Positions 1 through 28,809 of a DNA stretch of 28,809 bases are shown here, piece after piece. This DNA comes from a virus (taxonomy: Duplodnaviria > Caudoviricetes). Each line of letters begins with the position of its first letter. The first letter of the stretch is position 1. Location of the stretch: positions 1 to 28,809 of the IMG/VR virus record IMGVR_UViG_3300033076_000119; one strand, given 5' to 3'. The translations under genes were made by a program, and so were the position numbers. The notes beneath the pieces were generated by a model, which saw only the letters and a program-made list of their open reading frames with translations, made no database searches and was not told the origin of the DNA.

Positions 1-1058
1 TTGCACCGTGGATCTACAAAGAATGTACGCTCATCCTTTGCGTTGCATAACTTACTATTTACTGCATTTATACCATCTTTCACAGGGTTATGAGCACGTG
101 GGCTCTTTACTGTGAATCCCGCATTGCGGAGGATGGTGTGGTCAGTAACACCGATTTCTGCTGAGGTTTTGCGGGCTGAACCAGCTGAGTCTGGGTAGAC
201 GTAGAAACGAGCCTTGGGGTAGCGAGACTGTAGTTCACTGGCCATTTCTGAAGTATTGCTGGAACGCAAGTGGATCTCGTCAAATGCATGGATTACATTT
301 CCTTCTCTAGTGAATAATACTGCTGACATGTTGTCTACGTTAAAGTCCATGCCCACATAGATTAGGGCAGGGATGGCTCCTTCGTATAATTTAACGTTTA
401 AGTTGCGATCAAAACTGTAATAGATTCTATTTGCGTATTCTTCGAAAGATCCTTCAAATTCTTGTCTGAAGGTCTTTGCATCCAAGTCTTTACGTGCAGC
501 TTCAATTTCTTCCTGCGAAACATTACCGCCTTGAATAGTTGTGTATTGGAAACTTTCCCATTGATGTTCTGTAGGATCAAGTCCTTTCTGATACAGATCA
601 TATGCCCAGTTACGTCCCACCGGTGTAGAAATAAACATGGCATGCCCATTGCGATCGGCTAGTGCTGGACGAATAACATTTGTCCACGCTTCGCTATCAA
701 TAAATGCAAATTCGTCAAAACATGCAAAGTCAATTGATTGACCGCGTAATGAGTCAGGGTTGTCTGCACCACGTAATGCTATCTTGGTACCGTTGCGTAA
801 TATAATTGATAGATCTGTTTCGTTAACTTTTGTTACCCAATTTAAGTCTTGTAACTTATATTTTAAGCCATCCCAGATAACGTTCTTGGCTTGCCTATAG
901 GTAGGGTAAATTCCCCAAACATTGCGATTAGGGTATCTTGCAAATCTAGCCATCTCACGTATAGCTAGATGTGTTTTTCCAAAACGGCGGCCGGCAATTA
1001 CCACACGAAAACGTGCTTCAGACTCAGCAATATTTTGTTGTGGTTTACTTAATGCCAT
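1..1058 (-). CDS. terL: Terminase large subunit, N-terminal part (continues across the circular junction at 28809..28626; 413 aa total)
   Basis: Not in the ORF track; translated manually from ATG 1058: MALSKPQQNIAESEARFRVVIAGRRFGKT (Walker A), LRGADNPDSLRG, FACFDEFAF (Walker B), FISTP, nuclease acidic motif VGMDFN, YPDSAGSARKT. Frame open down to position 1. Confidence 0.97.
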   Translation of the reverse strand, partial: MALSKPQQNIAESEARFRVVIAGRRFGKTHLAIREMARFARYPNRNVWGIYPTYRQAKNVIWDGLKYKLQDLNWVTKVNETDLSIILRNGTKIALRGADNPDSLRGQSIDFACFDEFAFIDSEAWTNVIRPALADRNGHAMFISTPVGRNWAYDLYQKGLDPTEHQWESFQYTTIQGGNVSQEEIEAARKDLDAKTFRQEFEGSFEEYANRIYYSFDRNLNVKLYEGAIPALIYVGMDFNVDNMSAVLFTREGNVIHAFDEIHLRSSNTSEMASELQSRYPKARFYVYPDSAGSARKTSAEIGVTDHTILRNAGFTVKSPRAHNPVKDGINAVNSKLCNAKDERTFFVDPRC

Positions 1059-1522
1059 TAGCGATCATCACTCCATGGAAGGACTTTGTCAGTGTCTGTG
1101 TTAACTGGACTATCACTCATGCCCAACATGTTCTTGGCTAGGAAAATTTGTAATGCTGCATTGCCTTTGAATGCATTGCTTAACATGGCTTGACGTAGTT
1201 TTTGTTTTGTCTCTTCGTAGCCCTTGTCGATGTACTCAGCAAAGTTATACTTCATGGTGCTTTCAGTAACACCAAACCATGTGGCCATTTCTTTAATGGT
1301 GCAGCCTAGACTAGCTAGGTAGTATACTTCATCGGGTGGTACTACTCGTTGATTAGGGGCACGTCCAACAATGAGACCTTGCTTGGTAACTGTGCCCCAC
1401 TTCTGCGCTTGCCGACCCCGAAATTCCCACTTATGTGTGGCCTGTTGTTCAGGAGCAACAGAGTCGATTTCTTGTTCGTCATCCGTGGTAGTTGTAGAGG
1501 CGGTAACAGAATTAGTATTCAT
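1058..1522 (-). CDS. terS: Terminase small subunit (HTH type)
   Basis: Directly upstream of terL with TAATG overlap; HTH-like LASLGCTIKEMATWFGVTESTM and C-terminal LRQAM..AFKGNAALQIFLAKNMLG typical of small terminases. Confidence 0.85.
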   Translation of the reverse strand: MNTNSVTASTTTTDDEQEIDSVAPEQQATHKWEFRGRQAQKWGTVTKQGLIVGRAPNQRVVPPDEVYYLASLGCTIKEMATWFGVTESTMKYNFAEYIDKGYEETKQKLRQAMLSNAFKGNAALQIFLAKNMLGMSDSPVNTDTDKVLPWSDDR

Positions 1523-1534
1523 ATTCTTATTTAG

Positions 1535-1603
1535 TTAGTGTTTGGATGGGGGTATTGTCTTATGGTCATGCTCGTCGTGTGGCACGTATGGGTCTTGTTT
1601 CAT
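1535..1603 (-). CDS. Possible 22-aa micro-ORF MKQDPYVPHDEHDHKTIPPSKH
   Basis: ATGA overlap with the glycosyltransferase stop; fills the gap up to the terS promoter motif. Confidence 0.3.
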   Translation of the reverse strand: MKQDPYVPHDEHDHKTIPPSKH

Positions 1604-2715
1604 AGTTCATACCATCCCGCTCCAGTGTATGTGTCTAGGATATCACTGAAGTAGCTTTCGTAGTGTGGGCGGATGCGATCTAGTGTGAACTGCAATCCGT
1701 GCTCATAACAGTCGCGGTGATTGATGGCACCAGCACGACAGTCAGTGAGTGCAGTAACAAAGTGTCGTAGTGTTCTGCAACGATAGCCAGTCTTGTTTTG
1801 AATGTTGAACTCACCAAATGCACCCCAATCAGGTGAGACGACTGGTGTGCCGCTTAACCACGCTTCAACCATAACGCCACCAAATGGTTCTGAGTAGCGC
1901 GATCCAATGATTAATGAACTGGCATTGCTCAGTAATGTCTTACGTGCTTCAGAATCTGCGTACCCATACTCTGTAACATGGTCGGGTACTTGCGTGTAAC
2001 CAAGATCTCTGAGTGATCCTTGTCCTGCTACAATCAATCGTTGCCCGGCAGCGGCTGTGGCTTCAATGGCAATGTCCACTCCTTTGTTGTAACCAATGCG
2101 TCCCAGGTAGAGTGCATAATCTTCTTTATTTGCATTAAATACAAAGTCACGAGCATCAAATGAATTAGGTATTACTGTGTGATACCAATCTTGACGGCAA
2201 TAATTAACTGAGTTGATGCCCTCACATGCGGCTCGTAGTGTGTAACTTTCATACACCCGCCAACGTGCGAATCCCGAACCATTTCCAATGCCAGGTTCCA
2301 CATTGATTAAGTCAGGATGTGCATCAGCAATGGGCTTTGTGCCTAATCCCCAAAAGTGTAGAACAAAGTCATGTGGTTGTTTACGTTCTGCAATCGCTTT
2401 TACAGTATTTGCACTAAATGTAGAATGTGCATAGTCATCAATGCGATAGTAGTGTGCAAATCCCCGTTCACGCCAGCTTTGATTATCTACGTAATCCGAA
2501 CCATAAGCTGTTCTAAGTGTTGAGTTGTCAGTTACAGTAACGTGATGTATGTTTGGGGCTAGTGTAATTTGGCTGTCTGCATGTCCATAGTGGAATAACT
2601 CATGTTCGGTATTTGCGAACATCTGTAAAAACTTGCGGACCTTTTGTGTAAATGCACATCCATTGTAATCGGGATGCGTGATGGTGTGGGGCAAGCCCAA
2701 AACATGTATTCTCAT
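1600..2715 (-). CDS. Glycosyltransferase, GT-B fold (GT4-like)
   Basis: YLGRIGYNKGVDIAI, EPFGGVMVEAWLSGTPVVSPDWGAFGE (EX7E motif). Start moved to ATG 2715 (MRIHVLGLPHT) because an AAGGA SD and TATAAATA lie just upstream. Confidence 0.92.
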   Translation of the reverse strand: MRIHVLGLPHTITHPDYNGCAFTQKVRKFLQMFANTEHELFHYGHADSQITLAPNIHHVTVTDNSTLRTAYGSDYVDNQSWRERGFAHYYRIDDYAHSTFSANTVKAIAERKQPHDFVLHFWGLGTKPIADAHPDLINVEPGIGNGSGFARWRVYESYTLRAACEGINSVNYCRQDWYHTVIPNSFDARDFVFNANKEDYALYLGRIGYNKGVDIAIEATAAAGQRLIVAGQGSLRDLGYTQVPDHVTEYGYADSEARKTLLSNASSLIIGSRYSEPFGGVMVEAWLSGTPVVSPDWGAFGEFNIQNKTGYRCRTLRHFVTALTDCRAGAINHRDCYEHGLQFTLDRIRPHYESYFSDILDTYTGAGWYEL

Positions 2716-2749
2716 GTGACTATAAATCCTTTTGGTATTTATAGTCACA
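2715..2749 (-). promoter_or_regulatory. T4-type late promoter TATAAATA (2736..2743) inside a 13-bp RBS/AUG-sequestering hairpin
   Basis: Perfect inverted repeat tgtgactataaat (2715-2727) / atttatagtcaca (2737-2749); mRNA UGUGACUAUAAAU-ACCAAAAGG-AUUUAUAGUCACA-UG. Confidence 0.75.
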
Positions 2750-2777
2750 AAAAAGCCCTGCTATAAAAACAGGGCTT
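2749..2777 (-). terminator. Intrinsic terminator
   Basis: AAGCCCTG-N9-CAGGGCTT followed by a T run, right after the 2785..3459 stop. Confidence 0.8.
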
Positions 2778-2784
2778 GTGTGGG

Positions 2785-3459
2785 TTATTTGTTTTCTAAG
2801 TAATAGTAGAGCGTTGGGTTATGACGTTGCCTTGATGCCATGGATCCTTTGGTAATTTTATAAAAGTTTGCAGCTTCTGTTTGACTATTAAAAATACCAT
2901 CTGGTGTAACAAAACGTTTAGAATTTGCTTTACGTGCTGCATTACCGGCATTTGCATATTGCTGTTGTTTTCGTTTTTGTCCAGCGGGACTGTTTGAAAA
3001 ATCATGGGCTTTTTTTGCTTTTCGTTTTCTATACTCTAATTGCTTAGAATTGCAATGATCAATTTTTGCCTGTCTCATTTGATCAATTTCTTTTTCATAA
3101 TTGATATCAAGCAAAGGTCTATAGAATGCCCAATTTTTAAATTTTCTTCTTTCTGATAATTTTATAGATCCATCAGCTGGGAACCATGCCAATGATGCAC
3201 CTTGAATAACTGGAGATTTGAAATATTCCGAACATTCAGCAACACTATTAAATTCATATCTGGTATTAGCAGTATCAACTACTACAACTTTATAACCTCG
3301 GGTTGATCTAAAATGCTCAACCATTTTTTGTTTTTCTTCTAATATAGAAAGACGAAGATGAGTTTTTAATCCTTTTTTAACGCCAGCGTCATCACTGAAC
3401 TCAGAGTCCAGCATCGAGTCCATTGCATCTAAATCACGAAGTGTTTGGGGCTTTTTCAT
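2785..3459 (-). CDS. Putative DNA-binding protein with two NUMOD1/IENR1-like motifs (homing-endonuclease-derived; no nuclease domain recognised)
   Basis: YEFNSVAECSEYFK and FVTPDGIFNSQTEAANFYKI resemble the F.S..EAA HTH motif; Lys-rich linker; visibly AT-rich. Confidence 0.6.
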   Translation of the reverse strand: MKKPQTLRDLDAMDSMLDSEFSDDAGVKKGLKTHLRLSILEEKQKMVEHFRSTRGYKVVVVDTANTRYEFNSVAECSEYFKSPVIQGASLAWFPADGSIKLSERRKFKNWAFYRPLLDINYEKEIDQMRQAKIDHCNSKQLEYRKRKAKKAHDFSNSPAGQKRKQQQYANAGNAARKANSKRFVTPDGIFNSQTEAANFYKITKGSMASRQRHNPTLYYYLENK

Positions 3460-3460
3460 A

Positions 3461-4363
3461 TCACATCAAAAAGTTTTGTTCAAACTCATCAGCAAAGCTA
3501 TCTGGACTATTGTGCAACATAGCTCCGGCTTCTTTAACTGTACGCATACTGTTTGCACTTAGATTGTCCCAGTGCTTGTGGAATGTGTTCAGCAATTGAA
3601 ACATCTGCATTGGTGTAAGTGCGAATCCATCGTCAGCAAACACATTGCTACTCAGCATAACACTACTCATCCAACCCCATGCTTCTTCTGAGTTGATATT
3701 GAAGGCACGCCACTTGCAACGGTCACGAACTGCATGTTCGTCAATGTTGATTTTCTTCTTGCCAATGTCTTGCTTGCTGGCTAGTTGTTTGTTTGTTGTT
3801 ACTGTGAAGCGGCAGTTGTGTAGTGGGATTTCAATGCCAACACCGCCGTTGTCAAAGTGTTTGAGTGCATTGGCCAAATCTAAATCGCCTTGTTTTTCTG
3901 CACGACCAATTTGACTAGACACATTCACATCCCACGAAATTGCAGGCTCGTCATTGTCCAACACAATCTTCATAAAGTCTAAACTGGCCTTATCAGAGAA
4001 GAACACATCACAGTCATCAATCCAAACTGGCACCACTTGTTTGTTCCCAAACAAATACATGGCCTTGGCCATTTTCATCACAAAGCCATTAAGACTTGCA
4101 CGACCGTGATATTTCACATAATCAATTTTGTGGCGGTCTGCAACATTGCGGACTGTAAATGTTTTACCTGCACCCGGGGGGCTCCAGATAATTGTGTTCT
4201 TTTTTGTTTCTGCTTCTTGTGTTACACCAAGTGCGTTTTCTGCATATTTCTCAAGACGTGCTGTGAGTTCAAGTCCATTGTGAATTGCGGACTTTTGTTT
4301 TGCAGTCAAGTAACCGGAATATTCTTCCAGGAACCACTCCAAGTTTGAATTGGGTTTTGCCAT
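3461..4363 (-). CDS. AAA+ ATPase
   Basis: Walker A SPPGAGKT, Walker B VWIDDCD, sensor-1 VTTN, arginine-finger-like AVRDRC; strong SD AAAGGA. Confidence 0.88.
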   Translation of the reverse strand: MAKPNSNLEWFLEEYSGYLTAKQKSAIHNGLELTARLEKYAENALGVTQEAETKKNTIIWSPPGAGKTFTVRNVADRHKIDYVKYHGRASLNGFVMKMAKAMYLFGNKQVVPVWIDDCDVFFSDKASLDFMKIVLDNDEPAISWDVNVSSQIGRAEKQGDLDLANALKHFDNGGVGIEIPLHNCRFTVTTNKQLASKQDIGKKKINIDEHAVRDRCKWRAFNINSEEAWGWMSSVMLSSNVFADDGFALTPMQMFQLLNTFHKHWDNLSANSMRTVKEAGAMLHNSPDSFADEFEQNFLM

Positions 4364-4376
4364 TTGTTTTTCCTTT

Positions 4377-4439
4377 GTGTGTTGCGATAGTGTTATTATA
4401 CAAAAGATCGCCTTTTTGGTGTGTTGCGTAAATGCAACA
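4377..4439 (-). promoter_or_regulatory. Sigma70-like early promoter (TATAAT) with operator-like repeats
   Basis: TCTTTTGTATAATA at 4394..4407 (identical to 6436..6449); palindrome TGTTGC-N6-GCAACA at 4422..4439; direct repeat gtgtgttgcg at 4377-4386 and 4419-4428. Confidence 0.7.
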
Positions 4440-4444
4440 TAAAA

Positions 4445-4654
4445 TTAATACTTTTGTTTGAATATGAGATCAGCCAATTCAATGAATATCCATTCCCACT
4501 CATCCACAGACTCTGGGTCAATCTTTGATTCCACAAAATCTGCCAATTTGCAAATTGCCTCGTGTATTTCTTGCTGACGATCTTGCTCCAAAATAATCAT
4601 GTTGGAGTCATTAAACATTTTAACAATAGATTTCCATTCTTGTTCTGTTGCCAT
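4445..4654 (-). CDS. Small acidic hypothetical protein
   Basis: 69 aa, SD AAGGA, adjacent to the upstream stop. Confidence 0.75.
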   Translation of the reverse strand: MATEQEWKSIVKMFNDSNMIILEQDRQQEIHEAICKLADFVESKIDPESVDEWEWIFIELADLIFKQKY

Positions 4655-4655
4655 T

Positions 4656-4832
4656 TTATTTCCTTTTAAGTTGTGGTTCTCTGCGTAGTATTTCCTGACC
4701 GCATACCAGTTGCAGTCCAGGTTCGTTTTGGTAGTTAAGCACTACCCATTTTAAGTAATCTGTTGGCACGTCTTTTAAATACCAACCTTTGTGTTTTCCC
4801 CACGGGAATCGCATGTATTGATCTGCTTTCAT
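4656..4832 (-). CDS. DUF3820/QSregVF_b-like small protein (58 aa; below ORF-track cutoff)
   Basis: MKADQYMRFPWGKHKGWYLKDVPTDYLKWVVLNY... matches the (M/F)PFGK(H/Y)KG..L.DVP..YL.W pattern; ATGA overlap with the upstream gene. Confidence 0.85.
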   Translation of the reverse strand: MKADQYMRFPWGKHKGWYLKDVPTDYLKWVVLNYQNEPGLQLVCGQEILRREPQLKRK

Positions 4833-5530
4833 AATTGAATACTCTGAGCTCCTTTGGGTTTGAAGTTTCTTACGGGTTCGCTGGATGCCATGTAGAACTT
4901 GCTGTCACTAGTAATGTTAAAGACCCCATCCACGGCCGCATTTTCTAACCAAAATCGATAAAACATCTGTTCGCCATCTGTCCACATAACAATTGCACTC
5001 AAGTTTACCAACTTCATTTTAGAAGCGCCTTCACGTTTATCCAGTCGATAGCAGGCTTTGCCAATCCACTTTGTGTAAGTTAGTTCGTTGTAAAATTCCC
5101 ATGCACTTCCATAAGCGAGATCTGATGCCCAATCCTGGGGCAAGTTTGCATAAAATTCACTGCGCTTGTTTGTAACACGCCATTTGAATTTTTGGAACTT
5201 GCTGTTGCTGTTAAAACTGCAATCCATGTTAATTGCCCAGCGAGTTGGTTGTGTTCCATCATGATCACTGGATTTGGGGTTGAGCAAACTTAGGCGTGCA
5301 TACGAAATAGTGTCCAATTCGATTTCTGGGCGCGATTCCATTATCTCTCTCCTTGACTCCCTACATGAGGGCACCTCATCCTCGACTTTCGCTGAAGGCG
5401 AAAGAGGTGGTAGCACCGCAGGTGCGTCCTGTCTCGAAGAGAGGCCAAGAGGCCCGACCGCCAGGTCGTTCTTACTTCTTACTTCTTTCTTTTTTAATAT
5501 TACTTTTGCAGAATTTTCTTGAGTTGCCAT
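4829..5530 (-). CDS. Orphan protein, 233 aa; candidate replication/origin-associated protein; possible internal start at 5341
   Basis: Strong SD AAAGGA; 5' part overlaps the hairpin cluster; in-frame Met64 (5341) has its own AAGGAG SD. Function is inference only. Confidence 0.7.
   Translation of the reverse strand: MATQENSAKVILKKKEVRSKNDLAVGPLGLSSRQDAPAVLPPLSPSAKVEDEVPSCRESRREIMESRPEIELDTISYARLSLLNPKSSDHDGTQPTRWAINMDCSFNSNSKFQKFKWRVTNKRSEFYANLPQDWASDLAYGSAWEFYNELTYTKWIGKACYRLDKREGASKMKLVNLSAIVMWTDGEQMFYRFWLENAAVDGVFNITSDSKFYMASSEPVRNFKPKGAQSIQL
5365..5468. repeat. Cluster of six consecutive short inverted repeats (DNA mini-hairpins)
   Basis: atgagg-GCA-cctcat; ctttcgc-tGAAg-gcgaaag; gcacc-GCA-ggtgc; tctc-GAA-gaga; ggcc-aaga-ggcc; cgacc-GCCA-ggtcg. 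Confidence 0.85.
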
Positions 5531-5561
5531 TTGTTTTTTCCTTTCTGATATCCTGTATTAA

Positions 5562-5580
5562 TATTTACCTATAATAGCAA
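5562..5580 (-). promoter_or_regulatory. Tandem extended -10 (TGcTATTAT) and TAAATA motif upstream of the 5530 gene
   Basis: Minus strand reads TTGCTATTATAGGTAAATA. Confidence 0.5.
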
Positions 5581-5613
5581 AAAAGCCGTGGAAATGCTAT
5601 CAAAATGAACAAT

Positions 5614-5799
5614 TTATTTGGGCTTGCGGGTAGTGTGCCCGTAGTCTGTAAACCGCTCCAGCAGGCGCTGTTCTGACTCACTACAGACGCCATAAGTGAT
5701 GATTTTCTGCTGAATTCGTGCCACAAGGCGCCGGAAATCTGCCGATGGCTTCTTTACCCCGGGTATTGTGTTATCTAGTGCTGTTGGTCTGTGTTGCAT
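5614..5799 (-). CDS. Small basic hypothetical protein (61 aa)
   Basis: Start reassigned to ATG 5799, which follows TAAATA-N5 and removes the overlap with the upstream gene. Confidence 0.65.
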   Translation of the reverse strand: MQHRPTALDNTIPGVKKPSADFRRLVARIQQKIITYGVCSESEQRLLERFTDYGHTTRKPK

Positions 5800-5803
5800 A
5801 CAC

Positions 5804-6019
5804 TTATTTAGGTTTACGTGTGCTTTTACGAGCAGCCAATTCTGCAATTGCGGTATCCAAGTCTGTGTCCATTTGCTCTAGTGCTATTTCAGCCCGGATA
5901 CGTGCAATTACTCCTGCCAGTTCTTCTGGTGTGTACGTTTCCGACACTTTACGCATTAAAGCCAGCAGATCCTCATTAACTGGCTTTGCTAATAGTGTTT
6001 TTATTAATTCTGGTGTCAC
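5804..6019 (-). CDS. Small helical hypothetical protein
   Basis: 71 aa, GTGA overlap with the upstream gene. Confidence 0.7.
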   Translation of the reverse strand: MTPELIKTLLAKPVNEDLLALMRKVSETYTPEELAGVIARIRAEIALEQMDTDLDTAIAELAARKSTRKPK

Positions 6020-6219
6020 TTCACGTAACCAATTCGTTGATTTGAGTTGTTGTAGATATATGTGCGTCCCGATCCGGCACCACAGTAAGAGGGGCGCTCA
6101 TAGCCTGGAGGGCGCCCAAGTTCTGCTCGCATTTGGCAAGGATCAGCACGATCATACATTGTAGCAATGGAACTGCAACCAGTTAGTAGAACTAGGGAAA
6201 TGAGTATTAGTGTTCGCAT
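6016..6219 (-). CDS. Small lipoprotein
   Basis: Signal peptide II with lipobox: MRTLILISLVLLTG-C. Confidence 0.8.
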   Translation of the reverse strand: MRTLILISLVLLTGCSSIATMYDRADPCQMRAELGRPPGYERPSYCGAGSGRTYIYNNSNQRIGYVK

Positions 6220-6413
6220 TAGATTTTCGCAATCGCAGAATTAAGAATAGAAATGAATGAATAGTATGCCATAACTCCCAAAGCAATACCTAAGACAATA
6301 GTAATCAAAGCTGAAACTGGATTTGCAATTGCATGTTTAATAGTTTGCACAAGAGTGCCCACTAGAGATATGCAGGCTGCAACTACCACAATAAAAATCA
6401 CAAATTCCAACAT
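6219..6413 (-). CDS. Small membrane protein with two predicted TM helices
   Basis: Two hydrophobic stretches; SD AAGGAG. Confidence 0.8.
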   Translation of the reverse strand: MLEFVIFIVVVAACISLVGTLVQTIKHAIANPVSALITIVLGIALGVMAYYSFISILNSAIAKI

Positions 6414-6435
6414 GGCCTTCTCCTTACTATGTGTA

Positions 6436-6465
6436 TATTATACAAAAGAATGTCTTTTACGCCAA
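6436..6465 (-). promoter_or_regulatory. Sigma70-like early promoter
   Basis: TTGGCG-17 nt-TATAAT; shares the 14-mer TCTTTTGTATAATA with 4394..4407. Confidence 0.75.
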
Positions 6466-6493
6466 AAAGAAACCCCGCGCTATGCAGGGTTCC
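6464..6493 (-). terminator. Intrinsic terminator
   Basis: GGAACCCUGC-AUAGC-GCGGGGUUUC followed by U5. Confidence 0.75.
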
Positions 6494-6565
6494 GGAACTG
6501 CACCCAAGAGAGAATGGATTTTGTTAGGGCACAGTTTGTTGTATATATGCCACATAACACAAAAG
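6464..6565 (-). ncRNA. Candidate 3'UTR/small RNA with an anti-RBS loop
   Basis: Stem 6496-6505/6527-6536 encloses a loop containing UCCAUUCUCUCUU, followed by the terminator. Confidence 0.35.
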
Positions 6566-6567
6566 TG

Positions 6568-7050: not shown

Positions 7051-7061
7051 CTCAACTTTCT

Positions 7062-7097
7062 AAAAAAAAGCCCAGAGCATATTTCTACACCCTGGGC
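7062..7097 (-). terminator. Strong intrinsic terminator
   Basis: 12-bp stem GCCCAGGGUGUA/UAUGCUCUGGGC with GAAA tetraloop, followed by U8. Confidence 0.85.
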
Positions 7098-7182: not shown

Positions 7183-7187
7183 AATAT

Positions 7188-7736: not shown

Positions 7737-7737
7737 C

Positions 7738-9204: not shown

Positions 9205-9206
9205 GA

Positions 9207-20650: not shown

Positions 20651-22903
20651 TTATCTGCGGCTTGTTGGGTATGAGCGAGCGCCAGCCATTGCCACTGCAT
20701 GAATGAAGCTTGGGTCACGAGCAACTAGTGCTTGGAAACTTGGAGCATCAACTGCTTGTATATTATATACCACAGATTGTCCACCACCCATTAAGTCCTT
20801 GTTTGGTACCATGCTGCCATTGCCATCTGGTAAGAACAATTCAGGTCCGCGCTCACCAACAATGTATGGTCGATTGCCGCTTACTGGACCACCACTTGCA
20901 AGAATACCAGGGATAATCTTGCCGCCAAATAGTCCGCCTGTGGCGCCTGTGCCACCGGAACCTAGACCCATGATCTTGGCAATACTTGCCTTAACTTGCA
21001 TACGTAGCAGGTCTTCAAGAATACTGTTAATCATACTCTTGAATTCAAACTTACCAGTCTTGGCAAAGTTCACAAATGCATCTTCCATAGAGCTTGTGAC
21101 TTTAGAGAAGATTTGTTGTGCTTGGTTTGCAGCATTGGTTGCATTGTCCACATACTCACGTAATGCGTTGTTCCAACCAGTTGAGAATTGACGACTTACC
21201 TCATACAATTCACTTTGCTTGGCTTTTAATGCTTCAGTGCCTTTGATGCTGATATCATAATACTTCTGTGCTTCTTCAGGAGTCAATTTGCGATTTAAAC
21301 GAGACTCTTCAGCTTGTATTGCGCTACGTGCAGATGCTTTAGCTGCTGCATCAATATCATAGTACTTCTTTTCAATTTCGCTCATGCCAATCTTTGCCAG
21401 GTCACCTTGAATGCCCAGCAATTGATTGTTCATGTCGATTTCGTGTTGGATACCATACAAGCGAACCTTTTCTGCGTTCTGTAGCATGTTGCTATTGTCA
21501 ATAGAACGCTTTAATCGATCACTTTCCGCAGCAGTTAACTTTTGAATCTTGGCAATTTGTTCGTCGTATGCTTTGCCAACACCACCGGCAAGTTCATCTT
21601 TGGTTAGTTGTTCTTTAGCAGCACGTAGACGATCGATTTCATCAGCACTACGCTTATACAATTCTTCTTGCGCTTTAATAACATCGCCGTATTCTTTGCT
21701 CTTACCAATTAGTTGGTTTTCAGTGTTGATGTTATCAATCACATGTGCATTGGCTTTTGCAAATGCTTGAGCACTTCGTTCAATTTCAGCAACTTTACGT
21801 TTGTATGCGTATTCAACTTCACGTTGTGCGCCCGCATTCTTCTTGGTCGCTTCTTCTTCTTTTTTGTTTTCTTCACTGCCGCCAAAGAAAGCAGCAGCGC
21901 CAGCAATAAGGCCGCCACCTAAACCAACTGCACTTGCAGCATCGCGTAAACCAGTAATGCCTTTGTTGGCTGCGCCGCCAGTGAGTGCTCGTCCAATGTT
22001 TAATTTACCTAAGCCATCAGCAATGAAAGATACGCCGCGACCGGCCATGCCCAATAAGCTAATGAATGATCGTAAGCCACTGGCAACGAATGTTGCAACA
22101 ATGATTGTGCCTAGCACTTTAAATGCAGTAATTAAACTTGGCATCTTGTCTAACAAGTCAGCAAGGCCAGATACAATAGGTTCGAATGCTTCTAAGAACG
22201 CAATACGAATCTTAGAAATACTTTCTTCCCACTTGTCATTTAATTCAGCAGCACGTTTAATGCTTTCTGCCATCTTGGTTGTGGCTGCATCACCATCGCG
22301 TAGTTTCTGAACAAAGCTTTCATCAATAGTAACACCACGGAAGCTCTTGCCTAGCAATTCACTTTGTAGTGCAGTCTTGTGTGCGCTCTGTTCCATTTTA
22401 GCAAGACCTTCAACAGTCTTCATGAACAGCTCTTGTTCAGTTAAGTTTGCAAGATCTTTAAGTCCAATATTCAACTCACCAAATACTGCTTGTAGGCGGC
22501 CCGAGCCTTCTGCGGCAGCATCAATTTGCGTGTAGAAATACTGTAGTCCTTTGGCAGCACCTTCGGCATTGCCGCCAGCAGTAATAGTGGCTTGTTGGAA
22601 TGCAACAATGCTGTTAACACCAATGCCAGTTGCTTGGCTTAGATCATTAATAGCATCTGCCATGGCAATTGCACTCTTGGCAAAGCCTAAAAATGCAGCG
22701 CCAGCAATAACTGTTTTAAGTTTTGTAATGCCAGTGGTTAAAGCACCAGTGTTGACATTAAGTTTGCTAAAACTGTCATTGGCATCTGACATAGCGGTTT
22801 TTGCAGTTTGAGCAAACTGTTTTGTTTGCCCTTCTGCTTTGCCTAATTCGGCAATGTAACTTTTGTTATCAATGGTTAGCGTTACGCTAATGTTAGTTGC
22901 CAT
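20651..22903 (-). CDS. Tape measure protein (750 aa)
   Basis: Long helical Ala-rich protein; lambda-like TMP C-terminal region (GWNNALREYVDNATN, MEDAFVNFAKTGK) and ASGGPV...YIVGERGPELF. Confidence 0.95.
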   Translation of the reverse strand: MATNISVTLTIDNKSYIAELGKAEGQTKQFAQTAKTAMSDANDSFSKLNVNTGALTTGITKLKTVIAGAAFLGFAKSAIAMADAINDLSQATGIGVNSIVAFQQATITAGGNAEGAAKGLQYFYTQIDAAAEGSGRLQAVFGELNIGLKDLANLTEQELFMKTVEGLAKMEQSAHKTALQSELLGKSFRGVTIDESFVQKLRDGDAATTKMAESIKRAAELNDKWEESISKIRIAFLEAFEPIVSGLADLLDKMPSLITAFKVLGTIIVATFVASGLRSFISLLGMAGRGVSFIADGLGKLNIGRALTGGAANKGITGLRDAASAVGLGGGLIAGAAAFFGGSEENKKEEEATKKNAGAQREVEYAYKRKVAEIERSAQAFAKANAHVIDNINTENQLIGKSKEYGDVIKAQEELYKRSADEIDRLRAAKEQLTKDELAGGVGKAYDEQIAKIQKLTAAESDRLKRSIDNSNMLQNAEKVRLYGIQHEIDMNNQLLGIQGDLAKIGMSEIEKKYYDIDAAAKASARSAIQAEESRLNRKLTPEEAQKYYDISIKGTEALKAKQSELYEVSRQFSTGWNNALREYVDNATNAANQAQQIFSKVTSSMEDAFVNFAKTGKFEFKSMINSILEDLLRMQVKASIAKIMGLGSGGTGATGGLFGGKIIPGILASGGPVSGNRPYIVGERGPELFLPDGNGSMVPNKDLMGGGQSVVYNIQAVDAPSFQALVARDPSFIHAVAMAGARSYPTSRR

Positions 22904-23225
22904 TGTTAGTTCTCCTTATAGCTTGTGGAATCAATACTCGAACAACGTAATCGACTGTAGGTTGTGTCATGCCTCGTGGTGCTTGCACACTACCACGCAT
23001 GCCTTTGGCTGTCATATGACGACCCATATCCAACACTTCTGCGTATGGATAATCAGCTTCAATAGTGCGTTGGTTCTGTGTAGTTGAGCGTCTAGCATTG
23101 CCAGTTTTAATTGGCGTTACTTTTAAAAAGTGCTTAAACGCATCATCGGCGACAGAATCAATTTCCTTTTCAGCCAAAGCAATGAGCTTTCGAAACTCAC
23201 TGGTATCTACAGTCATTTTAATCAT
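22893..23225 (-). CDS. HK97 gp10-like neck/tail completion protein
   Basis: TPIKTGNARRS and YAEVLDMG motifs. Confidence 0.8.
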   Translation of the reverse strand: MIKMTVDTSEFRKLIALAEKEIDSVADDAFKHFLKVTPIKTGNARRSTTQNQRTIEADYPYAEVLDMGRHMTAKGMRGSVQAPRGMTQPTVDYVVRVLIPQAIRRTNNGN

Positions 23226-23503
23226 GTTTTTGGATTCCTTACGTTATCAATCATGGCAAGCATTTCTTCAGTGCTTAATTTCTTACCACTTGGTGCTGCT
23301 TTACCGGTTCGCTTTGCTTCTTCCACTTCATACATGTGTGATTGGTATCGCATTGCAAGATCGGCAACATACAAATCAAATGTAGATGCCGAAGCCATGA
23401 CTTCACTGGGTAGTTTGCCGTATCTTTTACTAACAAAGTCCAGTGTCAACATGATGGTTAGTTCTGGGTCTGGTTCATCGAAGTTGACACTTGGGGCTTT
23501 CCC
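23222..23503 (-). CDS. Tail assembly chaperone, -1 frameshift extension (gpT-like)
   Basis: Frame is open from the slippery site: GKAPSVNFDEPDPELTIMLTLDFVSKRYGKLPSEVM... Confidence 0.8.
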   Translation of the reverse strand, partial: GKAPSVNFDEPDPELTIMLTLDFVSKRYGKLPSEVMASASTFDLYVADLAMRYQSHMYEVEEAKRTGKAAPSGKKLSTEEMLAMIDNVRNPKT

Positions 23504-23790
23504 AGCGTTTCAACTACCTTTTGAATAGCAGCCATCATTACATCTGTGGGTAATGCAAGGCCGTCTTTAACAACAGGTGTGCCATCTTCATTTAAGATCA
23601 TGTCATTGATCATGCCAGCAAGTTGATCAAACTTTGCTGTGTCTAGTGTTGCGATCTTGACAAAGTTGTCTAGTCCTTGACGATCATAGATGTAAAACTC
23701 AAGTGAGTCGCCGTAGGCTTCTACAATACTTGCGTCATCAAGGCTTAGTTTAATTAGTTGTGGCTTACTAGCCAATTGTGATAATTTCAT
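23458..23790 (-). CDS. Tail assembly chaperone (gpG-like, 110 aa)
   Basis: Start reassigned to ATG 23790 (AGGAG SD, ATGA overlap); lies between tail tube and TMP; G GGA AAG near the 3' end. Confidence 0.85.
   Translation of the reverse strand: MKLSQLASKPQLIKLSLDDASIVEAYGDSLEFYIYDRQGLDNFVKIATLDTAKFDQLAGMINDMILNEDGTPVVKDGLALPTDVMMAAIQKVVETLGKPQVSTSMNQTQN
23497..23503 (-). other. -1 ribosomal frameshift slippery site GGGAAAG
   Basis: Same heptamer as the lambda G/T site, in X XXY YYZ phase (CTG GGA AAG). Confidence 0.88.
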
Positions 23791-23966
23791 CGTGAATCTC
23801 CTGTTCTTTCTATCATTTTGTTTGCCAACACTAACAGAAAACTTAATCTGTTGTGGGCTTTCTCTAGATCTCCTTTTGCACATCGTATCTCGTTAGCTGC
23901 TTTAGCAATTTCAGCGAGCATTGTGCGAAGGATTTCTGCTTCGGTCTTTTTATCTAATACGTCCAT
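23787..23966 (-). CDS. Small coiled-coil protein (59 aa; not in ORF track)
   Basis: MDVLDKKTEAEILRTMLAEIAKAANEIRCAKGDLEKAHNRLSFLLVLANKMIERTGDSR; AGGAG SD; CATAAATA upstream. Confidence 0.8.
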   Translation of the reverse strand: MDVLDKKTEAEILRTMLAEIAKAANEIRCAKGDLEKAHNRLSFLLVLANKMIERTGDSR

Positions 23967-23994
23967 CGATCTTCTCCTATCTATTTATGGATAC

Positions 23995-24018
23995 AAGAAA
24001 AGGGCCTTGTGAGCCCTT
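23995..24018 (-). terminator. Intrinsic terminator after the tail tube gene
   Basis: AAGGGCU-CACAA-GGCCCUU followed by UUCUU. Confidence 0.75.
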
Positions 24019-24042: not shown

Positions 24043-24537
24043 TTACTCAGAAGTTGCTACAGTATAGTCACCTGTTACAGTGATAGTAACTGGTGTTACC
24101 CATACTGGACTGTCTGCACTAATAGTTGGGGCTAAACCTGTGATGTAGCCTTGACCCTTAATGAAGTAGTCGGTTGTAGACTCTTGAACTTTCAAAGAGA
24201 AAGTTGTAAGTGTCTTGTTGCGGCTTAGACCCATAATACCTTGTTGGGCAGTAGTGTCGCCTTGGCCGGCAGTTACGTTGCTACCGAAGAAAGTAGTTGG
24301 ATCAACAACCAAGTTCATGCTAACAGAGTTAGTAGAAGTTGTTGCAACTTGTTTCTTAGCAGTAGCATCAAGTTGCGACCAAGTAAACACGTCATTAGCG
24401 TTGTTAATGGTAACATCTTGCAATGCTGGGATTGTAACGTTAGCACTTGTTAGTGCTAATGTGCCTAGTGCTAGGCCAGATTCGATCTTAAGAACGACTT
24501 GGCTTGTAGTACCAGGAGCTGGATTAATATAACTCAT
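24043..24537 (-). CDS. Major tail (tube) protein
   Basis: 164 aa, Thr-rich beta protein with G.GYITGLAPT...VTITVTG; position; followed by a terminator. Confidence 0.85.
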   Translation of the reverse strand: MSYINPAPGTTSQVVLKIESGLALGTLALTSANVTIPALQDVTINNANDVFTWSQLDATAKKQVATTSTNSVSMNLVVDPTTFFGSNVTAGQGDTTAQQGIMGLSRNKTLTTFSLKVQESTTDYFIKGQGYITGLAPTISADSPVWVTPVTITVTGDYTVATSE

Positions 24538-24555
24538 TTGTTATTCCTTTGCTGG

Positions 24556-24960
24556 TTAGTTAAGTTGTTTGGTAAAGCTGAATTCAAATTCAGTAACAAG
24601 TGCGTCAGCTTCAAAGCGTGTGCTAACTTGACAACGGCGTTGTGTAACACCAGTAATATCAGAGGTTAGTCGACATTCTTTGACTGCATCAACAAGTGTT
24701 TCATAGTTTGAAGGCAGCAGTTTGGCGTCTGTAACGAAGTATGCACGAACAGTTGTAGTTTCATCTACCCAAGTTGCACCACTTAATGTAGCTAATGTTG
24801 CGTCTTGACTAATTTGGTCAACGTCAACATAGATCTTTTTAAAGTTCTTTAGATACAATGGTGTGCCGCTTGCGTCATATGGCAGTTCAGTGCTCATTGA
24901 GAATGTGCCCAATGTGTTTGCACCTAGTGCTCGGATGCTGTCGTAGATGGCTTGTCTCAT
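24556..24960 (-). CDS. Tail terminator-like protein
   Basis: Size and position immediately before the tail tube gene. Confidence 0.6.
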   Translation of the reverse strand: MRQAIYDSIRALGANTLGTFSMSTELPYDASGTPLYLKNFKKIYVDVDQISQDATLATLSGATWVDETTTVRAYFVTDAKLLPSNYETLVDAVKECRLTSDITGVTQRRCQVSTRFEADALVTEFEFSFTKQLN

Positions 24961-25469
24961 TATCGTACTCGCTTAAGATTGCTGTATCCTGGTGATTTCT
25001 CACTGGATCCAATTGCGCCACTACCGTCAAAGTCGTACCAATCACCGGCAGTAATCAATTCCCCGAAGAGTTTATCAAACTTTGCTTGGTAATAGCCGAT
25101 CTTTTGACGCTCTGCATTATCCTCAGTGCTAAAATCTGCGATCTTAGGTAGAACATAATTGTAAAGTGCGTAGTAGACACAGAGATCAGTGAAGTCGTCT
25201 TGTCTGTCTTGAATCTTTACAGGATTCAGTGCAGGGATATCAGCTACAGTATTGATCACTTCTGATCCACTGCGGCGGACATAATAACTTCTCCACCAAT
25301 CACTTGCTCTTAATAGAGTAAGAATACGAGCAGTACTACGGATTAGAGAATCCTCAACTACATCGCTCGTTAGGCCTTCGTTAGTCTCGAATAGGCGTTG
25401 ATCCATTGCTTCAACGTCACCGTATTCAGCAAAAGATATTACCTGAGAACCGTTTAGTAAGAAGGCCAT
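24960..25469 (-). CDS. Head-tail adaptor/connector
   Basis: Helical protein directly after the capsid gene; FAEYGDV N-terminal motif. Confidence 0.7.
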   Translation of the reverse strand: MAFLLNGSQVISFAEYGDVEAMDQRLFETNEGLTSDVVEDSLIRSTARILTLLRASDWWRSYYVRRSGSEVINTVADIPALNPVKIQDRQDDFTDLCVYYALYNYVLPKIADFSTEDNAERQKIGYYQAKFDKLFGELITAGDWYDFDGSGAIGSSEKSPGYSNLKRVR

Positions 25470-25483: not shown

Positions 25484-26329
25484 TTACAGGATAGAGCTGT
25501 CAGCGACAACGCCAATGCCGTAACCATCATACAACTCACCAACACCGTAGTGAGCAGAAGCAACAACGTCGGTACCCAAGAAACTAGCACGGCGTTGTGT
25601 TTCGATGTTGATGTCACCGATCATAGCCAAGCCAAGTGCTTGCTTGTGGAATACACCACCAACATAGTCACCAGCAGTACCGTTGTCAGCAATCAAGCTA
25701 GACTCGTATACTGGGATACCGAACAACGAACCAACATAGCCAGATGCCATTGCTTCGTTTTGTGCAACACCAGCGTTAGGGTTTGCAAATGTGTTTGTCA
25801 AGTTTGCTTTCAAGTCGTAAGCAACGTATGGGTTAACAACGCATGCCAAGTCTTGAGCTGGAACACCAGCAGCACGTAATTTAGCAGCAGCTTGAGCGAT
25901 AGTTGCTGCGCTTAGTGCAACGTTTGCAGCACCAACAGTACCAGAGAAGCCACTGAATAGGGCCATCAAGTCTGTGTCGATCTTGCGAGCGATAGCTTCA
26001 CCAAATAAGCGACCTAGGTCAGCAACAACGTTGCTAGCACCAGAAGCAACTGCCAAGTCAGTAACCAATGTACGGATACCAGCTGTAGAAACAGTTAGAG
26101 TTGCACCGCTTGTAGAAACAGCAGTATTGCTTACTTCGTCACCTTCGGTAACAGCAGCAGCAGATTGTGTTGGGTAGATAGGAACTGTTACAGTCTTACC
26201 TTGACCTGGGGCCAAAGTGTAAGTCTTAACAAGACCGCGCATGATCGATTGCTCACCAGCAACGAACATTGCTTCAGCGACAATGCTAGGTAGCAAGTCG
26301 TTTAGAGTAGTAGTTGTAGAACCAGCCAT
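25484..26329 (-). CDS. Major capsid protein (HK97 fold, 281 aa)
   Basis: GKTVTVP, EGDEV, GEAIARKIDTDL, GYVGSLFGIPVYES, FHKQALGLAM..DINIETQR; AGGAG SD. Confidence 0.96.
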   Translation of the reverse strand: MAGSTTTTLNDLLPSIVAEAMFVAGEQSIMRGLVKTYTLAPGQGKTVTVPIYPTQSAAAVTEGDEVSNTAVSTSGATLTVSTAGIRTLVTDLAVASGASNVVADLGRLFGEAIARKIDTDLMALFSGFSGTVGAANVALSAATIAQAAAKLRAAGVPAQDLACVVNPYVAYDLKANLTNTFANPNAGVAQNEAMASGYVGSLFGIPVYESSLIADNGTAGDYVGGVFHKQALGLAMIGDINIETQRRASFLGTDVVASAHYGVGELYDGYGIGVVADSSIL

Positions 26330-26351
26330 TATAATTCTCCTTTAATAAGTG

Positions 26352-27035
26352 TTAGGCTATACCGTTTGCTTTACGATATTCTCGGTAAAGCGCACGATGC
26401 TCTGGATTTTTCATATCTAGTTTTGAAATATCTAGAGACTTTGCGGAATTTGAGATACTAGATTTGGTATTGGTAGTTGCAGGTGTTGCACTAACAAAGT
26501 GTGGATTACTCAATAGGAATTCCTGCACTAAGTCTTCCACTGCTAGCGGTGTTCCGTTATCTGCATAACGTACTGAACCTTTAGCATCAACTACTTCTAC
26601 TTCACCGTCTCCATTAAGTCTAACATTATTAATTAGTAAACTCTTGACTTGTTCTGGCGCAACAGCACGAAACTTAGCGGCAGCGTTAACAAGAGGTACA
26701 TTAACTCGGTAGTCCTTAATAATAGCATCTCGTTTTTGGATCTCTTGATCCTTTTTAGCAGCTAAATCTTGCAGAGTTTTTTCAAACTCGCCACGTTTAA
26801 TTTGTTGTTCTGTTTGGCGCTTAGTTGCTTCTTCACGAAGTGCTCTAAGTTCCTCTGGATCACCCAAATCTTGGTATGGCTTTAGAAGTTTCTTTTCCAA
26901 TGAGCCACGCATACGGGCCATCATATTGTCAACATCTTCTTGCGTATATGTTTTAGTTGCTACTGCCTGATTTTCTGTTTGTAAAGTTGCCGCATCAGTT
27001 GCGTTATCTTGTGTGCCAATGTTTTGATCGGTCAT
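26352..27035 (-). CDS. Capsid scaffolding protein
   Basis: KTYTQEDVD motif, coiled coil, FLLSNPHFV; between portal and capsid genes. Confidence 0.9.
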   Translation of the reverse strand: MTDQNIGTQDNATDAATLQTENQAVATKTYTQEDVDNMMARMRGSLEKKLLKPYQDLGDPEELRALREEATKRQTEQQIKRGEFEKTLQDLAAKKDQEIQKRDAIIKDYRVNVPLVNAAAKFRAVAPEQVKSLLINNVRLNGDGEVEVVDAKGSVRYADNGTPLAVEDLVQEFLLSNPHFVSATPATTNTKSSISNSAKSLDISKLDMKNPEHRALYREYRKANGIA

Positions 27036-27067: not shown

Positions 27068-27118
27068 AAGATTAGCTGCATTACCAAAATAACACAGCCA
27101 ATCCTGATATTTTATTTA
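27068..27118 (-). promoter_or_regulatory. ATAAATA promoter motif and long 5' hairpin ahead of the scaffold-capsid operon
   Basis: TAAATA at 27113-27118 overlaps the portal stop; stem AGGAUUGGCUGUG/UGCAGCUAAUCUU (27068-27105). Confidence 0.6.
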
Positions 27119-28614
27119 TCCTCGTATTCGACCCAGCCAGCAGCAAGAGCTTCGCGCTTGGCAGCAAAGTCTACAACCCAACCAGTTTCGCCTGTTACAG
27201 GATTGAAGATCTGCTCAGGTTCTTCAAATGGTTCAGCACTATCGTAAGGAACAGTAGAACCATCCATTAGAGTAACTAGCTCTGGCATGATAATGTCAGC
27301 ATCTTCGCCCAGCAATTCAATGATCTCGTGGTCAATTAGTGCTAGAACACGTGGATCAGTTGCGGCCGATTTAGCATCCATTAACTGTTTGAATTCGTTT
27401 TGTGTGTCTTGGATGTTGAAGCTGCCAGGATAGTCAACGGATCCTTCCCAGCTCATGCCCATGTATGCACACCATAGGCGCCACATTTGTTCTTCACACA
27501 ATTCCAAGTTGTCGGCTTTTTCAGCTAGACGGCTGTTTAGTAATTGGAATTCAGTTTGCATTGCAACGCCACTCATACTCTTGGCTTCTGTTGCACGAAC
27601 TGAACCAGTGTTAGCCATTTTATCAATGCTGGCAATAGTGTGTTCAATAGCAGAATAAATTGCTTGCACACTTGCGCCAGAAAATTCCAACACATAAGGC
27701 TTTAGTGCAGGGTCAATGTTCTCAGGCATAGAGATAATGCTGCCTGGACCAATGCCGGCATTTGTTTCCGGAGTCTTAACTAAACTTGGGTGACTATCAA
27801 GACGGATACTTTGTTCTACTTCACTAGTGTTGTTGTAGATGAAACGCTGTGCATCAGCAATATCAGCAATGTCACTAACACCAATACCACGAACAGTTGA
27901 ACGTGAGTTATAAGCAATAATTGCAGGAATACGACCTAAGCCGTTTATTTCCACTAATTCACTCTTAATCAATTTCTTGCCAGTGTCCACTTCCCACGTG
28001 GTGATTGTTTCTGGTGTCCACTCGCGTGTGACTTGGATATCGCCGTTGGTTTCTTCAATGTACTTAATATAGTCTAATTCATATGCACCATTGGGTTGAC
28101 GCTTCCAGCTCCAATCCAACATGCTTAGTGGCGTAATTAGGCTAACGTATGGACGCACTTCCAAGGCCACTTCATCAGCGCGAGTGATAGCGCCCACATC
28201 GGGTTTTGTCATTATGATCCAGCAGTGGCCAAATACTGAGGCCCATGTGCTAACGTCTTTCATGAAACCATCTAAACTGCGTCCATCACGATCAGCATCC
28301 GCTAAGAATGCAGTCAATTCAGGCATAGCTTCTAATCCAGCAAATTCACGCTCGGGTTCTTCGCGGAACATAAAGCTGTTGTAAACAGAGATAACACTAC
28401 GGCAGTGATTCTCTAATGGAGTTGCACGTAGACGTGCAGCATATTCAGCATCTGTTTCTAATTGGTAACGTGTTAGGTGGCCACCTTGACGATAGTCTTC
28501 TCCACCTAAATAACTTTCTAACATGTAACGCCAAAAGTTGCGATTGTCCTGATAGATTTGATTACTACTAGAAATATCTGCTAACTGTTGGTCCACTGTT
28601 TGCATTGAGCTCAT
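27112..28614 (-). CDS. Portal protein (500 aa)
   Basis: Follows terL; SYLGG..Y, EY.ARL, NGLGRIP, GVSDIADIA, SGVAMQ motifs of SPP1 gp6/DUF4055-like portals. Confidence 0.93.
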   Translation of the reverse strand: MSSMQTVDQQLADISSSNQIYQDNRNFWRYMLESYLGGEDYRQGGHLTRYQLETDAEYAARLRATPLENHCRSVISVYNSFMFREEPEREFAGLEAMPELTAFLADADRDGRSLDGFMKDVSTWASVFGHCWIIMTKPDVGAITRADEVALEVRPYVSLITPLSMLDWSWKRQPNGAYELDYIKYIEETNGDIQVTREWTPETITTWEVDTGKKLIKSELVEINGLGRIPAIIAYNSRSTVRGIGVSDIADIADAQRFIYNNTSEVEQSIRLDSHPSLVKTPETNAGIGPGSIISMPENIDPALKPYVLEFSGASVQAIYSAIEHTIASIDKMANTGSVRATEAKSMSGVAMQTEFQLLNSRLAEKADNLELCEEQMWRLWCAYMGMSWEGSVDYPGSFNIQDTQNEFKQLMDAKSAATDPRVLALIDHEIIELLGEDADIIMPELVTLMDGSTVPYDSAEPFEEPEQIFNPVTGETGWVVDFAAKREALAAGWVEYEDK

Positions 28615-28625
28615 GTGTTTATCCT

Positions 28626-28809
28626 TTAAATTGTTTTATGACCCCATCGCTGAGGAATTTGTGTAGCTGGGTCCACATCTCTGCGAACTGGGAATTCATA
28701 ATCAATGTAATAACGCAATGCGTCACTAAAGTGATCGTATCCAGACTCTTTGTCCGGAATTGAAGTTCCTTCTTTATACGTATGTTTCTCTAAACTTTCA
28801 ATCGTCTTT
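28626..28809 (-). CDS. terL: Terminase large subunit, C-terminal part
   Basis: Joins in frame to position 1: ...FFVDPRC-K-KTIESLEKHTYKEGTSIPDKESGYDHFSDALRYYIDYEFP...GHKTI*; DHxxDALRY is the typical TerL C-terminal nuclease motif. 1058+184=1242 nt=414 codons. Confidence 0.95.
   Translation of the reverse strand, partial: KTIESLEKHTYKEGTSIPDKESGYDHFSDALRYYIDYEFPVRRDVDPATQIPQRWGHKTI

Follow-up and report, generated by a model that had tools for sequence, protein, structure and literature searches.

A complete tailed freshwater phage with TAAATA boxes ahead of its virion genes is a likely satellite virus of RaK2/PA5oct-like jumbo phages

Known phage satellites mostly take structural parts from a helper, and the few that form virions are small and their dependence is unexplained. 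P4, the phage-inducible chromosomal islands (PICIs), their capsid-forming kind (cf-PICIs), PICI-like elements (PLEs), Ando and I55 integrate and take capsids or tails from a helper phage, which is a jumbo phage for I55 (PMC10690885, PMC12772148, PMC13587820). Streptomyces has two satellite phages, MiniFlayer and MulchRoom, that do form virions (PMC10690885), and virophages build their own particle while their genes bear the late-promoter motif of a giant virus (PMC10301787). Here we analyse the IMG/VR record IMGVR_UViG_3300033076_000119, a freshwater siphophage of 28.8 kb taken whole (28,809 nucleotides (nt); hereafter the window), and the TAAATA boxes upstream of its genes. We conclude that this complete tailed phage is likely a satellite virus that would need a co-infecting RaK2/PA5oct-like jumbo phage for a gp55-type sigma factor predicted to read its (A)TAAATA boxes. 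Because it has no recognisable replication, late-activation or lysin genes and carries a giant-phage box before its virion genes, it would be likely to reproduce only in co-infected cells.

The first-pass annotation of this DNA had described the phage as the reverse of P4, PICIs and PLEs and as nearer to virophages. The first comparison holds in that the phage, while presumably sharing the dependence of P4, PICIs, cf-PICIs, PLEs, Ando and I55 on a helper phage, encodes its own head and tail rather than lacking these genes and taking them from the helper; no integrase was found in the window or in the relatives scanned, and the chromosomal residence of P4 and PICIs is not seen. Across 185,579 genomes, one 16-kb, all-phage contig of the clade lies in a Chitinophagaceae metagenome-assembled genome, where it is probably misbinned. 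The likeness to virophages also stands, although those are eukaryotic and of another virion lineage, and their helper supplies a whole RNA polymerase in its factory (PMC10301787), whereas here a single sigma factor for the host polymerase would be supplied. A virion-forming satellite is not itself new, however, as MiniFlayer and MulchRoom show. Both resemble the window phage in having their own terminase, portal, capsid and scaffold, no primase, an HNH nuclease and, as proposed for it, a virulent large helper, and MiniFlayer is likewise non-integrating (PMC10690885). They differ in being 15-17 kb with terminal repeats, whereas the window phage has 29 kb, a full siphoviral tail module, helper-type late boxes and a presumptive dependence; MiniFlayer has a short tail binding the helper's neck, and promoters are not mentioned in the text consulted (PMC10690885). 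The boxes themselves resemble those of T4 gp55 and of the RaK2-like phages CBB and GAP32, with a single -10-like element, no -35 element and ATAAATA predicted before structural genes, but these phages encode the sigma factor themselves and the window phage has no recognised one (PMC7892883, PMC5259590). A full-text search, mostly without subscription papers and without supplements, turned up no description of a phage that borrows the late sigma of its helper; capture of that factor by a fully tailed phage would be the new element, virion-forming satellites being known.

The genome is closed, as had been proposed: the terL reading frame runs from position 1 over the junction into 28809, and the longest contig carrying two window proteins measures 28,839 nt, 30 nt more than the window. 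Both observations fit a circularly permuted genome, and the record holds no end repeats. Every called gene is on the minus strand. Annotation with PHROGs and Pfam (43 open reading frames, ORFs) and NCBIfam (28 ORFs), on calls that overlook ORFs shorter than about 42 amino acids (aa), bears out a full head and tail, with a packaging, a head and a long-tail module, the last including tape measure, distal tail, hub and fibres. Like satellite viruses of the MiniFlayer type, the phage thus encodes its own virion and packaging proteins. In the same searches no window ORF matched a polymerase, primase, single-stranded DNA-binding protein, integrase, repressor, endolysin, sigma factor or clamp. Recognisable replication genes are therefore absent, as in such satellites, although orphan ORFs remain. 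The first-pass annotation had also taken lysis genes to be lacking, which is not wholly so because a holin-like ORF is present at 9289-9561.

TAAATA occurs at all 13 minus-strand positions listed in the first-pass annotation, and three plus-strand copies bring the total to 16, which is no excess over shuffled sequence (21.4 expected). Ten of the 13 sense copies lie at most 110 nt upstream of a start, and the hexamer ranks first of 3884 upstream of starts, both with hand-set starts (three chosen manually) and with automatic gene calls. Nine of the 13 fall in the 6% of the DNA that is non-coding, where 1.6 were expected and 2000 shuffles gave at most 8; gene interiors hold one copy against 6.9 expected, and two antisense against 6.4. 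The two copies that the first-pass annotation listed apart from those at gene boundaries lie at 56, inside terL, and at 9773, in a 309-nt gap. At 27113 and 5805 the box runs over the end of the preceding gene, its final codons and stop included (AAA-TAA); we rejected a stop-codon artefact, which covers at most 2/13 copies, and anagram hexamers are far less enriched. An archaeal TATA box or a sigma28 -35 element (consensus as generally known) was rejected because an ATG can follow at 5 nt and there is no partner element. An ATG stands exactly 5 nt past the box at five of the 13 sites. Those past the 15178 and 9605 boxes open short upstream ORFs of 15 and 13 codons (15124-15172 and 9561-9599, minus strand), each with a stop codon that overlaps the following gene's start, possibly a translational coupling of leaderless messages. 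After the 7185 box the next start is 135 nt away and a terminator-like hairpin lies in between. In this stretch (7070-7190, minus strand) the hairpin, a strong one, comes about 90 nt past the box with no ORF before it; a small late RNA is possible, and Rfam gave no match for the stretch.

The box extends well beyond the window. A capsid search returned 121 relatives in IMG/VR, and in the 80 loci examined, redundant copies kept, 158 of 289 TAAATA copies lie upstream of starts, making it the best non-Shine-Dalgarno hexamer. It ranks 1-11 in nine of ten near-complete relatives and 67 in the tenth (a near-copy of G004, G008, was left out of the counts). It stands 31-77 nt before the scaffold gene in all ten genomes holding that gene, before the 59-aa tail gene in six of seven, and 4-6 nt before terS in four of ten. 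Over 89 clade sites the flanks are unconserved (position -1 is A in 60%) and a -35 element is lacking; TA precedes the hexamer at 17 of them, and the consensus is (A)TAAATA. A TAAATA core upstream of late genes without a -35, as in gp55-type promoters, is therefore present, whereas the strict T4 octamer TATAAATA, part of the original proposal, is complete at 2736-2743 but at no other of the 13 window copies. Gene interiors of 11 genomes contain 24 sense copies against about 93 expected from synonymous-codon shuffles and 19 antisense copies against about 121, with depletion in every genome. A terminator-like hairpin precedes 19 of 88 boxes versus 14 of 344 other starts (P 1e-6), and an ATG lies exactly 5 nt past the box in 13 of 144 cases in the 11 small genomes and in none of 73 in the pelagiphages. 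An excess at starts, a deficit in other places and terminators just upstream make up the trace expected of a short promoter that works by itself. This pattern indicates that the box is kept by selection across the clade and suggests that it is a promoter.

The HTVC111P-type pelagiphages and DSL-LC06 (proposed 'Nanhuiviridae') have homologous capsid (52% and 41%), portal, terminase, scaffold and hub proteins. HTVC111P and HTVC026P, cultured SAR11 phages purified by dilution and confirmed by sequencing, have DnaD, helix-turn-helix (HTH) and lysin genes annotated (bioRxiv 2019.12.14.876532, PMC10611076). They lack the box signal: TAAATA ranks 98 and 129 and is not depleted. DSL-LC06 has it (rank 2, 7/9 copies upstream) and is not described as a satellite in the accessible text of these papers. 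Among 29 distant terminase loci, only L136 showed a high TAAATA rank, and a capsid tree with one incomplete row did not resolve the placement of the pelagiphages. In G004 (L090-L091) we noted a repeat of about 3 kb from portal end to capsid, a fused terL-portal call and a split tape measure, which are likely assembly artefacts.

We found no reader of the box in the small phages. The gp55 families gave no match in sets of 19 and 12 small records, and a four-sequence gp55 profile had no match below E 2 among 13,184 six-frame segments from 21 genomes. Among 142 non-core proteins from ten relatives, a set that leaves out two proteins longer than 900 aa, there was no sigma, polymerase, integrase or endolysin. 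Two of 12 relatives scanned carry replication genes: G002 a primase and a D5-type helicase (L086:1528-4082), G012 a primase and a helicase (L310:4582-7080). By profile clustering of 11 genomes, only virion, terminase and holin-like families occur in 10-11 of them, so that, terminase aside, the holin-like gene is the only non-virion gene conserved across the clade. Fold searches on two window ORFs gave an AAA+ and a beta-barrel-like fold and no sigma. The AAA ORF was rejected as a clamp loader or helicase: by structure it comes nearest to phage AAA proteins, nrdC.10 among them, clamp loaders rank low, and weak cross-hits to helicase and RFC models (E 0.02-0.03) are unsupported by the fold. We did not count its homolog P0005 (80%, on a 336,589-nt contig) as a helper link; the nearest P0005 locus examined is a 35-kb small phage. 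The 233-aa ORF has a beta-barrel-like predicted fold, with no close match and no sigma-like helical fold. For this and a 160-aa ORF the ESM Atlas held nothing usable, and the 216-aa orphan of the fibre unit has 88 unnamed homologs. In another relative, G006, a ParB-like gene lies beside a TET-associated/glucosyl-hydroxymethylcytosine (HMC) glucosyltransferase gene (L095:5835-7443), which may point to a DNA modification, one that could rely on modified bases made by the helper.

A candidate helper emerged from the early promoters. The two early-promoter-like sites of the window have a common spacer, and a scan with this pattern gave 14 stretches, four of them large-myophage fragments with nrdA/B, bS21, Hsp20, PAAR or UvsW-like helicase genes. 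One, L156, has the same 23 nt as window 4394-4416, and its bS21 gene (L156:969-1205) has a TAAATA box upstream and adjoins Hsp20. The nrdB genes of these fragments lead to a very common jumbo clade of about 3400 stretches, in which TAAATA is the top upstream hexamer of G023 (114/300) and G024 (87/175), with the same loose flanks as in the small phages. A gp55-like sigma is encoded in all three near-complete jumbo records (in G024 at L274:11837-12778), with its nearest counterparts in Phosso, PA5oct, RaK2 and Atu_ph07. G023 and G024 have homologs of T4 gp43 and gp44, and G024 also of gp46 and gp47. Among the G024 genes that follow a box are those for sheath, tube, baseplate, adaptor, fibre and endolysin, and in G023 an ATG lies exactly 5 nt past the box in 27 of 300 cases. 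The T4-like helper proposed originally is thus better described as a RaK2/PA5oct-like freshwater jumbo myophage than as a classical T4 relative. Of the gp55/gp33/gp45 machinery also proposed, gp55 has its counterpart, but gp33 and gp45 may not be involved: CBB, where ATAAATA is predicted before structural genes, has a gp55-like gene, and neither of these was detected in it (PMC5259590). In our records gp45 (phrog_223) had no match, in a search without a positive control.

Further links tie the window to these jumbo phages. The sole DNA match of window positions 1-10000 to five jumbo records is the early promoter (22/22 nt, G023), and the window has no long shared DNA with G023 or G024, in which a simple repeat scan found no CRISPR (clustered regularly interspaced short palindromic repeats) array. 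Glycosyltransferase, holin-like and fibre proteins are common to both. Relative synonymous codon usage of the window correlates with L156 at r 0.94 and with G023/G024 at 0.87, compared with 0.42-0.53 for three control loci, and GC is 0.43 in window and candidate helper alike, a match expected of a satellite virus that could also reflect a common host. L152/G019 (334 kb, GC 0.22) was dismissed as a helper, having matched the early pattern by chance and having nothing in common with the window. Heavy AGGAG use, TTGAC/TATAAT promoters and the best solved matches of the jumbo bS21, which we take to be proteobacterial, point to a host among the Proteobacteria. They disagree with a Bacteroidota host, suggested by the Chitinophagaceae bin and rejected.

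The features of the window, all on the minus strand, are as follows.

1-1058, minus: terminase large subunit, N-terminal part (PHROGs, Pfam); continues over the junction into 28626-28809
1058-1522, minus: terminase small subunit, predicted leaderless (phrog_309, E 4e-7); ATG 5 nt past box
1528-1533, minus: TAAATA box, 5 nt before the terS ATG
1600-2715, minus: GT4 glycosyltransferase, common to T4-like cyanophages (48%) and jumbo G024 (47%)
2736-2743, minus: full TATAAATA box, heading the glycosyltransferase-terS-terL-portal unit
2753-2777, minus: hairpin resembling an intrinsic terminator, which closes the early region 10 nt upstream of the TATAAATA box
2785-3459, minus: ORF of 224 aa; weak C-terminal match to an intron-endonuclease-type domain (TIGR01453, E 3e-4, short of the cut-off)
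3461-4363, minus: AAA+ ATPase, phrog_1250/nrdC.10-like phage family; not conserved in the clade
4394-4416, minus: early-promoter-like site, TATAAT with conserved spacer and poor -35; identical 23 nt in jumbo fragment L156
4656-4832, minus: 58-aa QSregVF_b (PF12843) domain protein (Pfam)
4829-5530, minus: orphan of 233 aa with a beta-barrel-like predicted fold; belongs to a family seen in other small TAAATA phages
5562-5567, minus: TAAATA box; the 233-aa ORF begins 31 nt downstream
5805-5810, minus: TAAATA box that shares bases with a stop codon; the ATG of ORF 5614-5799 follows after 5 nt
6418-6465, minus: sigma70-type early promoter TTGGCG-17-TATAAT; -10 and downstream part equal jumbo G023 at 22/22 nt
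7070-7097, minus: terminator-like hairpin downstream of the 7185 box
7185-7190, minus: TAAATA box where the HNH gene ends
7188-7736, minus: HNH endonuclease (PHROGs, Pfam)
8358-8363, minus: TAAATA box; the 106-aa ORF/HNH unit begins 15 nt downstream
9035-9040, minus: TAAATA box, 5 nt before the ATG of ORF 8706-9029
9289-9561, minus: holin-like (XhlA-like) 90-aa protein; family in 10/11 genomes, 38% to a jumbo G023 protein
9605-9610, minus: TAAATA box before the holin-like gene
9773-9778, minus: TAAATA copy inside the 309-nt intergenic gap
9871-15124, minus: fibre unit of 167-aa ORF, 1048-aa collagen-repeat fibre, Kelch-like protein and 216-aa orphan
15178-15183, minus: TAAATA box heading the fibre unit
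15211-20638, minus: tail tip with distal tail protein, hub, central-fibre pieces and glycine-rich fibre (PHROGs, Pfam)
20651-22903, minus: tape measure protein, 750 aa (PHROGs, Pfam)
22893-23966, minus: Neck1-like protein, two presumed tail chaperones (by position) and conserved 59-aa ORF
23982-24018, minus: terminator-like hairpin (24000-24018), then TAAATA box (23982-23987); box in 6/7 genomes with the downstream gene
24043-25469, minus: major tail protein, tail terminator and head-tail adaptor, all presumed from position and conservation, without a family match
25484-27035, minus: major capsid protein and scaffold (PHROGs, Pfam)
27113-27118, minus: TAAATA box, 77 nt before scaffold; in 10/10 clade genomes
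27112-28614, minus: portal protein (PHROGs, Pfam)
28626-28809, minus: terminase large subunit, C-terminal part (PHROGs)

The 309-nt gap at 9562-9870 is the largest in the genome and a candidate origin region; besides two boxes it contains a doubtful plus-strand ORF of 96 aa.

These features suggest the following course of infection. The phage DNA would be delivered by its own tail, and host sigma70 RNA polymerase would fire the two early promoters (6437-6465 and about 4400), expressing an early accessory block until transcription halts at the hairpin at 2753-2777. No late product would appear until a helper's gp55-type sigma redirects the polymerase to the boxes, which would then drive the packaging, head, tail, fibre and holin-like units in time with the helper's late phase. 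Late transcription in T4 starts about 5 nt past the box, and several late transcripts here may accordingly start at the ATG found 5 nt downstream. From the absence of such genes only, DNA copying would fall to the helper's T4-like replisome and lysis to its endolysin. It is tempting to speculate that the HNH nuclease initiates recombination-dependent copying or harms the helper.

The proposal of an own virion with helper-read late promoters survived every test run and gained a concrete helper candidate; the helper dependence itself we infer, and several observations weigh against it. About ten window ORFs have no family, and folds cover only two ORFs. Autonomous phages, the HTVC111P type included, commonly lack a polymerase or recognised initiator, and the primase and helicase genes of G002 and G012 mean that replication dependence is not clade-wide. 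The pelagiphage control is imperfect because those genomes are far more AT-rich, and their host is different. A terS box is absent from four of ten genomes, and the 5-nt spacing shows no clear peak in the 80 capsid loci and is not sharp in G024. On the helper side, ten of the 14 early-pattern matches are other or unplaced viruses, and the early-promoter match is confined to one of five jumbo records. In G024 the box is found ahead of the genes for DNA polymerase, nrdA, ligase and PhoH as well, and so is not purely late by gene content. The RaK2-like box is itself a prediction (PMC5259590), and RNA sequencing of PA5oct, in the text consulted, gave only TTGAC/TATAATA promoters. The relative G009 reaches a codon r of only 0.46-0.65 to the jumbo phages. 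L156-like contigs (at least 90%) are more numerous in four runs holding the phage (166, 106, 48 and 61) than in four non-holder runs of the same study (24, 27, 1 and 5), but this is a comparison of four with four runs in which habitat is uncontrolled, the likely source run is included and the jumbo clade is very common. The start-spacing, promoter, protein, codon-usage and co-occurrence links could each reflect a common host or habitat.

Three other explanations bear on the same data. The phage could be an autonomous lytic one, with an unrecognised small protein of its own directing host RNA polymerase to TAAATA, replication by the host and an unrecognised lysin. The many orphan ORFs, the very short ones overlooked by the gene caller and the cultured relatives that replicate with few recognised genes leave room for this, yet the hexamer is kept in all 11 genomes while no non-virion family except the holin-like one occurs in more than six, lineages with unrelated capsids retain it, and AAA+ and beta-barrel folds are predicted for the two largest candidates; we regard this explanation as unlikely. 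Still less probable, in our judgement, is facultative use, with low-level growth alone by read-through or antitermination from the early promoters and with boxes that rescue or boost late genes under jumbo takeover. Terminator-like hairpins directly before key boxes argue against it, as does the failure to find an antiterminator, endolysin or integrase, even though all genes are co-oriented, early promoters are present and some members keep a primase or helicase. Least probable of all, we believe, is that a host sigma reads TAAATA and that jumbo and small phages merely use host promoters. The box precedes some non-late jumbo genes, and the early promoters and codon usage in common with the jumbo phages show a common host as much as dependence. 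But the 89 sites have no -35 or second element, TAAATA fails the sigma70 -10 pattern while separate TTGAC/TATAAT promoters exist in the same genomes, and single-box TAAATA promoters are a known gp55 type (PMC7892883, PMC2984593).

Dependence on a jumbo late sigma, which we continue to favour, may not be limited to one lineage. Five complete phages of 32-38 kb with other capsid, portal and tail types, found via accessory genes (G030, G035, G036, G037 and G039; L299-L308), have TAAATA at ranks 2-10, and the proteins scanned from them (129 of 188 candidates, part of the remainder being covered in a separate scan) yielded neither a gp55 nor a polymerase or integrase. One virion protein of G030 contains a lytic domain, and an Rz-like gene is present in G035. 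Between divergent genes of G030, boxes stand back to back. In G012 and G013 the hexamer ranks 57 and 19. We lean slightly towards the view that freshwater tailed phages of 26-38 kb, siphoviral and podoviral, form a widespread polyphyletic guild, a bacterial counterpart of virophages, fully able to build virions yet obligately switched on by the late sigma of RaK2-like jumbo phages and sharing promoters and accessory genes with them.

If the satellite reading is true, the dependence would be regulatory and readable in DNA, which would give a rule for pairing uncultured small phages with their helpers and would explain why such abundant phages go uncultured. How commonly jumbo phages are parasitised is described as an open question in PMC13359090, and the window phage bears on it. 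If the guild exists, one hexamer would reveal its members from sequence, and many 'complete' small phage genomes in viromes would be hyperparasites.

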